Source of the DNA: an uncultured Bacilli bacterium
Lineage (GTDB): Bacteria > Bacillota_I > Bacilli_A > RF39 > UBA660
Direction: 5' to 3'
NCBI GenBank assembly: GCA_944332265.1
Contig: CALVJQ010000006.1
Coordinates: 1,021-65,020 of the forward strand
DNA: 64,000 nt
Positions 41,209 to 45,454 of this stretch are shown here, piece after piece (position 1 is the stretch's first letter; each line of letters starts with the position of its first letter). Made by a program: the position numbers and the translations under genes. Below the pieces are notes generated by a model that was given only the letters and a program-made list of their open reading frames with translations, searched no databases and was not told where the DNA came from.

Positions 41209-41238
41209 AAGACTTAAAAAAAGATTTAAGTCTTTTTT
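41209..41238 (+). terminator. rho-independent terminator after the sortase gene
   Basis: AAGACTTAAA-loop-TTTAAGTCTT followed by TTTTT. Confidence 0.65.
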
Positions 41239-41245
41239 ATTGTTA

Positions 41246-41254
41246 TGGTATAAT
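41246..41254 (+). promoter_or_regulatory. extended -10 promoter element (TGgTATAAT) of the 1390-aa gene
   Basis: TGGTATAAT lies 27 nt upstream of ATG 41282. The RBS GGAGGGG sits between them. Confidence 0.5.
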
Positions 41255-41281
41255 AAGAAGTAATAATATGGAGGGGTTACG

Positions 41282-44200
41282 ATGAATATAAGTGACTTTA
41301 AAAATATATTAGAAAGTATTGTACATTCTACATTATATGTATCTAATACAATGTCTGATGAACAAAAGAAAAATTTAAAAGAAATTAAAGCTTTTTTAAA
41401 AAAAAGGGATAATTTTATTGATGATTTAAGAACTTTATTGCAAACAAGAAATAGTGAAAATTATTTTGCGTATGATAAATATATTAATGATTTTCTAGTT
41501 AATAGTGAATTGAAGATAAAATTAGAAATCTTAAATAATCAAGATAAATATGATGATGTAATAAAGAATCCAAAAATTTTTATTAATATATGGGAATCAC
41601 TTAAGATTGATGAAAAGATAGATTATTTAAAACAAAAGAAGAAATATACTAGTATTGATTTATTATTAATAAATACAGAGATTACTGATACTGGTAATTT
41701 TAAAGATAATATTATATTAAGTGAAATTTTAAATAATAATGACATTAGAAAGAAGATAGATCCATTTACAATAGAGTTACACTATTCTTATAATATATTA
41801 GCAATGATAAATCTTATTGATTTTGAAATGTGTAATATTTTAACTAAAAATAGTTATACAATGTTATTATTAAAGAAATGTAAAAATTTTACAGAATTTT
41901 ATAACTTATACGAAAGTAATCCTAAAATTTATAACTTAATAGCTAATAATAGTTTAATTTTTGATAATAATGATAATGAAGAGATATATAAATTCATATT
42001 AGAGAATCCAAATTTTATTGGAAAATTTAATAATAAATATATGGATTTATTTAGTATTGTAGAAATTACAAAAATGAGTAAATTAAAGACTTTAGATAAT
42101 GATGCATTTAGTGCTATTTTACAAAAATTATATAAATATGATGAAAAGAATGCTGATGACTATTTTAAAGTTGAAAATTTAAAGAAATGCTCAAGACATA
42201 GTATTATAGTTTATCCATTTAATAATTTAAATAATGATTTACAAACAACAATATTTAAAAATTATAATTTGTTTAATCGTTTTTTAGATACAGTAATGAT
42301 TGAAGCTATTAATAATTGTTTTAAAGAAGAAGATATTGTTAATATATTAAGAAATGATGTTTTTGTTAATGATATGAGTTCTTATGCTATAGAATTATTA
42401 ATTAATAAATTAAGTTTTAAAGCTGCTTTTAATATGTTACAAAGAAAAATTATTTTTGATAAATTAAATAATTTAAATGTTAAAATCGATATAAAAGATT
42501 CTATTTTTATTAAAGGTTTCTTAGATAGTCCTATTTTAGTATATAAATCTGAACATAGTATGTTATATGAAATGTTAAATATATTAGCTAAAGATGATGT
42601 TATATATTATATTCAACTTCCTTATATAATGAATAAATTAAGTAATTATGAATTAATTAATTTAGTTTTAAATAAAGAAATTGACTTAGAAGCATTTATT
42701 AATAATAAAGAATTAAGAAAGAAACTTAATTTAACTGATATTATTCAGTTAATAGATAAATCTTTTGAAAAGAATATTAATTTAAATATTTTTAATAATA
42801 AAGAACTTGCTAAAGGTTTATTCAATTTAAGCGATGAACAATTTGCTAAAATAAATTTTGATGAAGTAAATTATTTATTTGAAACAGTTAGGACGAAATC
42901 GATTTTATCTAAGCAAGAATCTAAAGTAACGGTTTTAAGTTATAAAAGTGTACTAACGAGTTATTTAATTTTAGGCCTTGAAGAAACAATTAGAATAGTA
43001 AGTGATGGCGATAAAGATATTACCCTAGATGAAATTAAAAATTTACAAGAAGAAATTGTTAATGAAAAGTTATTAATGTTTAAAGAAAATAATTCTTCGG
43101 TATTCCAAAATATGGCCAAGAAAATGATAAAGAATTTACAAGAGATTGAACCAACTGATGATTTAAATATTTTTGCACAAAGAATAAGAGAAAATACTTA
43201 CTTAGATAATTTGATATATTTAATGTTAGATAATAATTTTGATTCTTATAATAATATAATTAATACTTTATATGGATATGTTCAATATTTTGATTATGAT
43301 GAATATGCATCTAAGAAAGATATTTATGAGTATGCTAAAAGTTTTATTACATTATATTTAGAAAATAAAGCTTTAGAATATAATAATGATTTTGAAAAAA
43401 TTATTTTGAGGAATTTTAAAGTAAAAGAAAATGTTATATATAATAAAAGAAAAGAAATTGGTAAATCATTTATTGATAAATTAAAAATGAAATTATTTGT
43501 TAGGGCTTTAACTGATCCTAATAAAGATTCTTATATTAATTATTTTAGAGATAATTACCCTATTAATGAATTAAAGAAAAAATATATATGCTATGTTGCT
43601 AATGAAGATGTTGATTTTGAAAGTATATTGGAACATGTTTTAACACCAATAATTAATGACCGCTTTGATAAAGAAAATTGTTTAAATAAGTTAGGAATAC
43701 ATAAACCTAAAGATACTGATGAATATATAAAATATCTTAATGATTTAAAGAGTATTACTTATTTAAATAGTAAAATAGATAAATATAAAGAGACTTATTC
43801 AGATGAAGAAGTTATTATGTTAATGAACTATGTTTGCTATGGAAGTAAGATTCCTTTTCAATTAAAGAAGAGAAAACTTAAAGAATTAAATAAATTGGGA
43901 AATATTATTGAAGAATTAAATGGGGAAATATATATTGATAAATCGGCTTTAAAATTTATATATAAAGATAATATGGATATATATAATATCGATGAAATAA
44001 TAGAATATAATAATTATTTAGAAATACTTGATGAAATAATTAGTAAGACTAAAAGTTATATTAATCGTAATATGGATAATGAAAAAATTAAAAAATATTT
44101 TGCCCATGATTATTTTAAAGCAATAAATACAGATGATTGTATCTTCCCTATTAATAATAATTATTATGAACCTAAAAAACGTGTATTTTCTTTACGTGAT

Positions 44201-45454
44201 TTAGAAACTATATTTAATGGATATGACTTAAGTAATTATAAAAAAGTTAATAGTAAGTTAAGACATTTCTTATTTGAAAAAAAGAATCTTATAATGGTTG
44301 CTGATGGTTATTATGAAGGAATTGTTGATAATTTGGGAATTATTATATCTAAATGGGATAAAATTGAAGAATATATTAAAGAATTTAATAAAGATTTAGA
44401 TAGTTTAACTTTAATTGGAATAGAAAATGTTTTAGCAGTTATTAATTTTGAAGATAATGTTTTAGGTAGAACAATTGATAAAGATGTTATAAAAAGTATA
44501 TGTGAAGATGGATATTACGAAGTAAATGATTTAAATAAAAGAATAAATATGTTAGTTGATTTATTTGAGTATTCATTTAAGAAAGTTACTAGTACTATTC
44601 CTTATCTATGTTATAAAGATGATATTTATAAAGTAGAAATCTTAGATAATTATAATCAAGATAAATTAAGAGCTTTAGGAGATTCTTTATACAAAGTTGG
44701 AGCTATTGGAAATGATTTCTTACACTACTCTATTTTAAATAAAAATGGTTTACAAATAGGTATTTATAAAGAGAATACTTTAGTATCTAAATTATTTGGA
44801 GTTAGAAATGGAAATACAATTTATTTAAATAGTTTAGAAGGAATTGGAGATTCTAATTATAATGAGTTATTACGTTTATTTGCTAATGAATTAATTAGTA
44901 TTACAAGAGATGATTTAGAACCAATTGAATTTGTAACAATAGTAAATAATAAAGTTTATTCTAGTCGTAATGGATTAAAACTTGATAAAACGATATGTCC
45001 GGTAATAAATGATCCAATTAATAAAATATATTATGATTTTGAGGAATTTACAGAATATAAAAACCTATTGAATCCTGATGATATATATACTAATTATAAA
45101 GATAATATTAGTACATTATTAGCAAGTAGTTTAGTTGTAGATAAAAATAATTTTAAGTATTATGATGTTGAAGATAAGTATTATCGTCGTCGTAATAGTG
45201 CTGTAAAATTAAGTAATAATGTAAATGAAGAATATTTAAAAAAGATTGATATTATATTATATCTATGTAAAGTAGAAGATAATAGTTTAAATATTGATAA
45301 TATCTGTTTAAGTGATATGGATACTATTTACTTAGGAGATGATTATGTTATATTTGTAACAGAGAAAAAAAATATAATACAATTTGTTCTTCCTTATGAT
45401 GAAAGAGCCTTAAAAGAAGTTTCAATGATAGTTGAAGAAATAAATAATCATTAA
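41282..45454 (+). CDS. hypothetical 1390-aa cytoplasmic protein, no recognisable domain
   Basis: Uninterrupted 4.2-kb ORF with a good RBS. N/K/I/D/Y-rich. No signal peptide, TM or Walker A. Mostly helical-looking repeats, with a mixed region near aa 1100-1390. Confidence 0.7.
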   Translation: MNISDFKNILESIVHSTLYVSNTMSDEQKKNLKEIKAFLKKRDNFIDDLRTLLQTRNSENYFAYDKYINDFLVNSELKIKLEILNNQDKYDDVIKNPKIFINIWESLKIDEKIDYLKQKKKYTSIDLLLINTEITDTGNFKDNIILSEILNNNDIRKKIDPFTIELHYSYNILAMINLIDFEMCNILTKNSYTMLLLKKCKNFTEFYNLYESNPKIYNLIANNSLIFDNNDNEEIYKFILENPNFIGKFNNKYMDLFSIVEITKMSKLKTLDNDAFSAILQKLYKYDEKNADDYFKVENLKKCSRHSIIVYPFNNLNNDLQTTIFKNYNLFNRFLDTVMIEAINNCFKEEDIVNILRNDVFVNDMSSYAIELLINKLSFKAAFNMLQRKIIFDKLNNLNVKIDIKDSIFIKGFLDSPILVYKSEHSMLYEMLNILAKDDVIYYIQLPYIMNKLSNYELINLVLNKEIDLEAFINNKELRKKLNLTDIIQLIDKSFEKNINLNIFNNKELAKGLFNLSDEQFAKINFDEVNYLFETVRTKSILSKQESKVTVLSYKSVLTSYLILGLEETIRIVSDGDKDITLDEIKNLQEEIVNEKLLMFKENNSSVFQNMAKKMIKNLQEIEPTDDLNIFAQRIRENTYLDNLIYLMLDNNFDSYNNIINTLYGYVQYFDYDEYASKKDIYEYAKSFITLYLENKALEYNNDFEKIILRNFKVKENVIYNKRKEIGKSFIDKLKMKLFVRALTDPNKDSYINYFRDNYPINELKKKYICYVANEDVDFESILEHVLTPIINDRFDKENCLNKLGIHKPKDTDEYIKYLNDLKSITYLNSKIDKYKETYSDEEVIMLMNYVCYGSKIPFQLKKRKLKELNKLGNIIEELNGEIYIDKSALKFIYKDNMDIYNIDEIIEYNNYLEILDEIISKTKSYINRNMDNEKIKKYFAHDYFKAINTDDCIFPINNNYYEPKKRVFSLRDLETIFNGYDLSNYKKVNSKLRHFLFEKKNLIMVADGYYEGIVDNLGIIISKWDKIEEYIKEFNKDLDSLTLIGIENVLAVINFEDNVLGRTIDKDVIKSICEDGYYEVNDLNKRINMLVDLFEYSFKKVTSTIPYLCYKDDIYKVEILDNYNQDKLRALGDSLYKVGAIGNDFLHYSILNKNGLQIGIYKENTLVSKLFGVRNGNTIYLNSLEGIGDSNYNELLRLFANELISITRDDLEPIEFVTIVNNKVYSSRNGLKLDKTICPVINDPINKIYYDFEEFTEYKNLLNPDDIYTNYKDNISTLLASSLVVDKNNFKYYDVEDKYYRRRNSAVKLSNNVNEEYLKKIDIILYLCKVEDNSLNIDNICLSDMDTIYLGDDYVIFVTEKKNIIQFVLPYDERALKEVSMIVEEINNH

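Follow-up and report, generated by a model that had tools for sequence, protein, structure and literature searches.

A giant protein of uncultured gut Bacilli with a predicted alpha-solenoid body and a divergent GNAT-like tail

What could be the role of a 1390-residue protein to which no named domain can be assigned, and which is encoded beside a sortase gene in a gut bacterium with a small genome? The gene that raises this question lies in a window of 64,000 nucleotides (the whole stretch of DNA that was analysed: contig CALVJQ010000006.1, positions 1,021 to 65,020 of the forward strand) taken from the assembly GCA_944332265.1 (1.42 Mb, 48 contigs) of an uncultured Bacilli bacterium of the order RF39. 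Reduced genomes of 0.7-1.5 Mb seldom retain 4-kb genes without reason. An earlier note, made from the letters of the DNA alone, had regarded the protein, hereafter the giant, as a functional cytoplasmic orphan with its own promoter and a globular C-terminal region, and had placed it among the envelope scaffolds, the spore scaffolds or the single-gene defence proteins. The analysis presented here upholds the function, the promoter, the cytoplasmic location and the globular C-terminus, rejects the orphan status and does not support any of the three proposed roles. The best-supported description, which is drawn from structure models, is that of an adaptor-like architecture combining a solenoid body and a very divergent GNAT-like tail. 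The role that we tentatively favour, and to which we give somewhat less than an even chance, is a cytoplasmic one, independent of the sortase, in which the repeats would guide either binding or an acyl-transfer-like reaction.

Architecture of the giant

The giant is encoded by a single unbroken open reading frame (ORF) of 1390 codons, the coordinates of which (Table 1) include the stop codon; this is the uninterrupted 4.2-kb frame of the earlier note, in which the start noted at 41209 belongs to the intergenic region. The composition of the protein (N 11.7, I 11.5, K 10.9, D 8.3 and Y 7.0%) exaggerates the bias of the whole proteome (N 7.7, I 10.3, K 9.2, D 6.3 and Y 5.5%), so that the richness in these residues, noticed at first reading, exceeds that bias in all five cases. 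Neither a transmembrane segment nor a signal peptide was found in the 1390 residues (highest 19-residue Kyte-Doolittle mean, 1.17), nor any Walker A, HExxH, DExD or CxxC motif, in agreement with what had first been reported. The features of a sortase substrate (signal peptide, LPXTG or NPXTG motif, hydrophobic stretch) are likewise absent from the giant, which ends in ...SMIVEEINNH, and scans with Pfam, NCBIfam, PADLOC and PHROGs returned nothing meaningful for it, the GNAT models of Pfam and NCBIfam giving no match at E<=1. The giant is predicted from its sequence to be a soluble cytoplasmic protein.

The domain-by-domain structure prediction and the Foldseek comparison that the earlier note had called for result in a solenoid body followed by a weakly GNAT-like tail. 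The AlphaFold2 model of residues 1-1010, computed from a 40-sequence alignment, has a mean predicted local distance difference test (pLDDT) score of 88.9 and a predicted template-modelling score (pTM) of 0.60, and consists of about 70 short helices with strand almost absent, as had been anticipated for the N-terminal ~1000 residues. In the comparison of this body with the Protein Data Bank (PDB), Foldseek retrieves only generic alpha-solenoids at template-modelling (TM) scores of about 0.15, the best match being CAND1 (E 5e-4), in the company of exportins/importins, SF3B1 and AP2.

The tail (residues 1000-1390) was modelled from 26 sequences, distant relatives included, with a pLDDT of 87.1 and a pTM of 0.86 (model m1091d69c8290). 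The model falls into three parts, namely a helical bundle (residues 1000-1098), an alpha/beta core and a small terminal alpha/beta subdomain, and it gives to residues ~1100-1390 the mixed alpha/beta character that had been attributed to the last ~300 residues. The conserved core of the GNAT fold follows the order b1-a1-a2-b2-b3-b4-a3-b5-a4-b6 (a, helix; b, strand), and the order of the elements predicted for the alpha/beta core of the giant, b-b, a, a, b, b, b, a, b, a, b, fits it. The top 50 matches of the tail in the PDB are all GNAT acetyltransferases, with Foldseek probabilities of up to 1.00 and weak E values (at least 2.7e-3). In a viral structure library, acyltransferases and GNATs dominate, although the best match (E 4e-7 over 289 columns) is to a phage protein that is uncharacterised. 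A tandem GNAT arrangement, in which residues 1263-1390 would be an internal duplication of residues 1100-1262, was considered and rejected (hhalign probability 0.2%).

Several observations weigh against the importance given here to a GNAT-like tail. The GNAT matches of Foldseek are partial, ~130 of the 391 residues being aligned at target-normalised TM scores of 0.26-0.47. No GNAT sequence model was matched at E<=0.1 in the Pfam scans of 36 diverse relatives, and no significant sequence match to the PDB was obtained with the profiles of the full-length protein (A1) and of the C-terminal module (A2). In the GNATs, the motif A, [QR]-x-x-G-x-[GA], located in the b4-a3 loop, binds the pyrophosphate of coenzyme A (CoA). 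A regular-expression search for [QR]xxGx[GA] found no occurrence in the 1390 residues, and the b4-a3 loop is devoid of conserved glycines, its sequence being N-S-L-E-G-I-G-D in the giant and N-Q-L-R-x-I-x-D in the wider family. Since the motif is absent from the giant and is not conserved in the corresponding loop of the family, the use of an acyl-CoA is putative at most, and the GNAT assignment, derived entirely from weak structural matches, is to be taken as a weak structural lead. Furthermore, the homologue of the distant genome G196, which is syntenic between a sortase gene and a glycosyltransferase gene (GT2-TPR, see Table 1), comprises only 900 residues (L033:8617-11319). It aligns to residues 345-1077 of the giant and a recognisable tail is absent from it, so the solenoid may be the functionally dominant part of the protein in this clade.

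Table 1. Positions in the 64,000-nucleotide window of the gene for the giant, its predicted parts, its expression signals and its neighbours.
Feature	Position	Strand	Basis
290-residue secreted protein: signal peptide MKKINKLLFALVLGICTFSFMSLTHA, NPDTG, hydrophobic stretch, tail KKNNKFNKI	38661..39533	-	sequence; no Pfam match
Sortase (class-B-like domain, TLSTC; one transmembrane helix; cytoplasmic repeat domain of ~270 residues)	39628..41208	+	Pfam Sortase, E 8e-14
Intrinsic-terminator-like hairpin (12-bp stem, 6-nt loop, U-run) ending the sortase gene	41207..41241	+	sequence; RNA fold; equivalent in most orthologous loci
Extended -10 element TGGTATAAT, without a good -35	41246..41254	+	sequence; conserved in orthologous intergenic regions
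Shine-Dalgarno GGAGGGG, 5 nt upstream of ATG 41282	41270..41276	+	sequence; ATATGGAGGGG conserved in orthologous loci
ORF P0001, 1390 residues (the giant)	41282..45454	+	full-length orthologues at 47-100% identity; purifying selection
Residues 1-1000, predicted all-alpha solenoid body	41282..44281	+	AlphaFold2 model; generic HEAT/ARM solenoids in Foldseek
Residues 1000-1106, predicted helical bundle ending in the conserved S-T-x-P motif	44279..44599	+	AlphaFold2 model; module alignment A2
Residues 1107-1283, predicted GNAT-like alpha/beta core with family-invariant residues	44600..45130	+	model; Foldseek; conservation table
Codon for Leu1136	44687..44689	+	column statistics, 156-sequence domain alignment
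Residues 1296-1390, predicted C-terminal alpha/beta subdomain; Y1300-x-R-x-R, G1352, D1373-x-x-A-x-x-E1379	45167..45451	+	model; alignment
GT2 glycosyltransferase with TPR repeats, convergent	45463..46560	-	Pfam; downstream of the giant in 13/16 loci

Orthologues, module family and the replaced cysteine

The giant is not the orphan for which it had been taken. When 5.8 billion proteins were searched with a word index, 133 clusters of full-length homologues were returned, 19 at ~100% identity and the others at 50-81%, and the C-terminal module of the giant is found in 893 clusters. Nearly all the 133 homologue clusters have lengths of 1373-1397 residues and none carries a Pfam domain. Species-representative genomes and metagenome contigs provided 48 loci, in which the encoded proteins are 47-72% identical to the giant and which are labelled as uncultured Bacilli, 'Tenericutes', Erysipelotrichaceae or Candidatus Coprovivens, the latter being placed in the GTDB order RF39, family CAG-1000 (PMC8035907). 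The phyletic survey proposed in the earlier note thus finds orthologues that are plentiful, syntenic and constant in length.

For close pairs of giants, the ratio of nonsynonymous to synonymous substitution rates (dN/dS, Nei-Gojobori) is 0.04-0.07 when the proteins are 88-99% identical and 0.12-0.23 when they are about 84% identical. In the comparison with locus L001, the identity is 69% for the giant, close to that of the sortase (66%) and of GT2-TPR (73%) and far higher than the 34-41% of the fast-evolving neighbours; within the giant, it is 74% for the tail against 68% for the body, the tail being at least as conserved. The low dN/dS (taken overall as 0.04-0.15) and the constant length of the orthologues bear out the functional gene that had been presumed, and the codon and protein comparisons indicate that it is under strong purifying selection and constrained over its full length.

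The module has a wider distribution than the giant itself. The profile A2, seeded from the giant and run against 1.84 billion representative proteins, gave the 893 clusters (counted at 50% identity) at E<=1e-3, of which 247 at E<=1e-30, and the module occupies the C-terminus in almost all of them, the proteins being ~600-1450 residues long. In distant genomes of the same order, the part that is matched is limited to residues ~1020-1390, again at the C-terminus, in ORFs of 790-1380 residues. The module is present in 16 of the 399 genomes of the class sample, 15 of which come from the source organism's own family and the 16th is marginal (E 9e-4), and in 56 of the 201 genomes of the order sample (28%), at 1-4 copies per genome. 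As judged from these genome sequences, the module family is confined, within the class sample, to the source organism's own bacterial family. It is lineage-restricted, patchy and sometimes multi-copy, and no protein-family database names it: the profile searches that had been recommended uncovered this 893-cluster family without a match to any named one.

The Pfam scans of the 36 diverse members identified nothing other than DUF4116 helical repeats, present in 6 of them. Because these 6 members carry DUF4116 on their N-terminal side, the heads of the family are taken to be helical repeats of a comparable kind. The neighbourhood, which the earlier note had proposed to survey, is conserved in the clade of the giant and unrelated among the distant members: no genomic context is shared by 12 of the latter, the large ORFs upstream encoding proteins such as PFOR and a P-type ATPase. 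Since the module is near-uniformly C-terminal, the heads vary and the contexts are unrelated, the family consists of a conserved tail placed behind exchangeable helical-repeat heads.

The module alignment comprises 156 sequences, of which 136 are distant family members. Fifteen residues are conserved to at least 90% both in the orthogroup of the giant and in the 136 distant members, namely P1107, D1145, Y1149, K1154, N1155, G1156, R1175, G1177, N1178, N1183, Y1300, R1302, R1304, D1373 and E1379, and the giant has all of them. Position 1136, in the a1-a2 loop, is a Cys in 96% of the distant members; it is a Leu in the giant, and L, N or P across the 1390-residue orthogroup. Should the family Cys be catalytic, the orthogroup of the giant would be a pseudo-enzyme or a binding module, or would use a different chemistry. 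A paralogue of 1740 residues, encoded by the same genome (contig C31:8216-13438; L030:3217-8439, +), carries the same C-terminal module and has kept the family Cys. Its signature is GERTGACMRAYG...GFRNGN...NQLR and Pfam recognises no domain in it; a small canonical GNAT gene is found just downstream, on the opposite strand (L030:8691-9278). Two members from the genus g39 (L035:4851-7280 and L037:7173-9551) have ~800 residues and stop at profile position ~330-342 of 413, without the terminal alpha/beta subdomain. A split gene was rejected for them: the subdomain is simply missing and the ORF that follows is unrelated.

The patchiness of the family and its exchangeable heads are reminiscent of conflict systems. 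In a single-gene anti-phage or abortive-infection protein, the repeat head would sense the invader and the GNAT-like tail would act as the toxic effector, by analogy with the GNAT toxins that acetylate aminoacyl-tRNA. A family that is restricted to one lineage, occurs in 28% of the genomes at 1-4 copies and combines exchangeable heads with variable positions is consistent with such a function, as are the G+C content of the giant (19-22% against ~26% for the window) and the phage origin of its best viral-structure neighbour (E 4e-7). We nevertheless judge a defence function distinctly improbable. In PADLOC-DB 2.0, 0 families are matched by the giant at E<=1 and the 36 relatives give only spurious weak matches; an NTPase or other switch domain is absent; searches with the C-terminal module of three family members as queries found no homologue in phages, plasmids or viral contigs; and the orthogroup is without the conserved Cys of the family. 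Moreover, defence genes usually undergo rapid turnover, whereas the orthologues of the giant are syntenic, constant in length, about 100% identical within species and subject to strong purifying selection. The orthogroup behaves as a stable resident gene, and the defence role suggested at the outset is not supported.

Expression signals, spores and the sortase neighbourhood

The giant is separated from the sortase gene upstream by a hairpin (41207-41236) within which the TAG of the latter (41206-41208) falls, and whose 12-bp stem, followed by a U-run, has a predicted free energy of -10.5 kcal/mol (RNA fold). This terminator, pointed out in the earlier note, escaped the consensus terminator scanner because its stem contains fewer than three G-C pairs. 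In this AT-rich stretch, promoter-like consensus matches are no more frequent (68 observed) than in shuffled sequence (75 expected), so that a single consensus match proves nothing and comparative conservation is far stronger evidence for a promoter. Indeed, the succession of the hairpin, TGnTATAAT and ATATGGAGGGG is kept in 23 of the 29 orthologous intergenic regions, even where the identity of the proteins is as low as ~50%. In the remaining ones, the gap is short and contains neither element (3/29), or the hairpin is present and the -10 box lost (3/29). This conservation points to an extended -10 promoter of the sigma-A type that belongs to the gene itself and is shared across relatives, and the extended -10 element and strong ribosome-binding site from which independent expression had been deduced are both sustained. 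Between positions 40001 and 46000, over the giant, the G+C content falls to 19-22% and the GC skew rises to values of +0.29 to +0.36, compared with averages of ~26% and near zero for the window.

The type of this promoter bears on the proposal that the giant would be a spore coat or exosporium morphogenetic protein, made in the mother cell, put together on the forespore in spite of having no signal peptide, and acting with the GT2-TPR, collagen-like and CotJ genes. Spo0A and SpoIVA are both encoded in the source genome, the neighbourhood includes the GT2-TPR gene, cotJ-like genes and a gene for a collagen-like protein, and coat proteins, as known from Bacillus sporulation, lack signal peptides as the giant does. 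However, the promoter that is conserved belongs to the sigma-A type and not to the sigma-E or sigma-K type. SpoIVA is found in 177 of the 201 genomes sampled from the order, which are 0.6-1.6 Mb in size, and it is missing from 6 of the 56 genomes that have the family (G017, G040, G060, G079, G107 and G114), in line with the 24 of 201 for the order as a whole; moreover, the Pfam and NCBIfam scans revealed no similarity to known coat proteins. Since the promoter is of the sigma-A type and SpoIVA is absent at the same rate with the family as overall, a spore-specific role is unsupported, the scaffold formerly suggested shows no association with SpoIVA, and we consider this role hardly probable at all. 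As a separate observation, the small-genome gut Bacilli of this order appear, from the presence of SpoIVA in 177/201 genomes and of Spo0A in the source genome, to be spore-forming.

The sortase neighbourhood is the other obvious context of the gene. The earlier note spoke of a sortase pair, but there is one sortase gene, whose listed start is probably too early, because its orthologues begin at Met14 (39667). The N-domain of this long sortase occurs in 65 of the 201 order genomes, and the ORFs that carry it all have ~520-570 residues. The divergent gene that had been counted as the second sortase encodes the 290-residue secreted protein, which is probably the substrate of the adjacent enzyme, as it combines a signal peptide with NPDTG, a hydrophobic stretch and a basic tail, that is, a sorting signal of the class-B type. 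This protein is fast-evolving (25-41% identity in relatives).

Could the giant be the cytoplasmic partner of the long sortase, its solenoid or its tail binding the ~270-residue repeat domain and thereby scaffolding or regulating the anchoring of surface proteins or the glycosylation of the envelope? All the 45 loci for which upstream sequence is available, that of the distant G196 (sortase 43% identical) included, have the long sortase gene directly before the giant or its homologue and in the same orientation, and GT2-TPR lies downstream in 13 of 16. The cytoplasmic domain of the sortase still calls for an explanation, and its NPDTG substrate is encoded next door. Against this stand the conserved terminator and the separate promoter that divide the two genes, and the fact that the whole neighbourhood is syntenic in this clade anyway. 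Moreover, the long sortase (65/201 genomes) and the module family (56/201) are found together in 14 genomes, when 18 are expected by chance. Nothing resembling the giant adjoins the sortase in 20 of 20 sampled genomes possessing it, and in genome G108 the sortase and GT2-TPR genes are direct convergent neighbours with no giant between them. The distant family members, for their part, adjoin unrelated genes, among them those for PFOR and a P-type ATPase. The giant lies between the sortase and GT2-TPR genes only in its own clade, which is a fixed arrangement and not an obligatory partnership. We therefore regard a sortase partnership as unlikely, and the envelope scaffold formerly proposed, with synteny in a single clade and no association at the level of genomes, is unsupported.

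Proposed role and comparison with known systems

In the role that we favour, which combines cytoplasmic binding or acyl-transfer-like activity with independence from the sortase, the ~1000-residue solenoid would offer a long surface for the docking of one or more cytoplasmic partners. The compact tail of ~290 residues would bind a ligand or a protein and, in the canonical members of the family, would probably modify it chemically, with a putative site made up of the polar residues that are invariant in the family, namely D1145, Y1149, K1154, N1155, R1175, N1178, N1183, Y1300, R1302 and R1304. Ordinary GNATs catalyse a direct transfer without a Cys. Because the near-invariant Cys of the family is replaced in the orthogroup of the giant, the latter would most likely be a non-covalent binding 'reader' or pseudo-enzyme, or would perform a Cys-independent direct transfer as ordinary GNATs do. 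A bolder proposal is that the family constitutes an unrecognised class of intracellular repeat-guided modifying enzymes, particular to a single lineage of gut Bacilli with reduced genomes. Its Cys-less orthogroup, fixed beside a class B sortase that has both a cytoplasmic and an extracellular part, would dock on the cytoplasmic domain of this sortase and control the anchoring of surface proteins from within. We know of no precedent for such an inside-out regulation of sortase activity, and we hold this proposal to be very improbable.

Whichever function the tail fulfils, the family is amenable to structural and biochemical study, in a group of gut bacteria about which little is known, and the Cys-bearing and Cys-less paralogues of a single genome provide a natural comparison. 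An enzymatic tail would add a new branch to the acyltransferase fold, distinguished by an active-site signature of its own and by targeting heads that can be exchanged. A tail that serves as a binding module would make the giant a bacterial counterpart of the large solenoid adaptors, which are usually a eukaryotic feature.

How does this architecture compare with known systems? The PcfJ-like proteins (PF14284) of conjugative plasmids and phages appear twice, at ranks 15 and 49, among the weak viral-structure neighbours of the tail. The homology suggested by these two matches was rejected: no PF14284 match exists in the genome at E<=10, and the hhalign profile-profile probability is below 1%, whether the comparison is made with single PcfJ proteins or with an alignment of 77 PcfJ sequences. 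A literature search on PcfJ returned only the C. elegans pCFJ plasmids. The DUF4116 proteins (PF13475), for which we know of no function, share their repeats with the N-terminal region of the 6 distant module-family members mentioned above (best E 2.4e-8), whereas the giant itself has no DUF4116 match at E<=1.

The HEAT/ARM scaffolds, such as CAND1, exportins/importins, SF3B1 and AP2, resemble the giant by the continuous superhelix of short paired helices that is predicted for its residues 1-1000. The likeness is one of architecture alone (TM ~0.15, 9-12% identity), the giant is bacterial, and nothing points to a common descent or to shared partners. The GNAT superfamily, whose nearest members are 2zxv, 3shp, 3g8w and the GCN5/PCAF HAT domains, is approached by the predicted order of elements in residues ~1107-1283. 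The giant departs from it by the lack of a sequence-level GNAT match and of the CoA pyrophosphate motif, and by TM scores of at most 0.47. It departs from it also by what it possesses of its own: the invariant motifs S-T-x-P, N-D-F-x-x-Y, K-N-G, G-x-R-x-G-N and Y-x-R-x-R, in a domain that is fused behind a 1000-residue solenoid.

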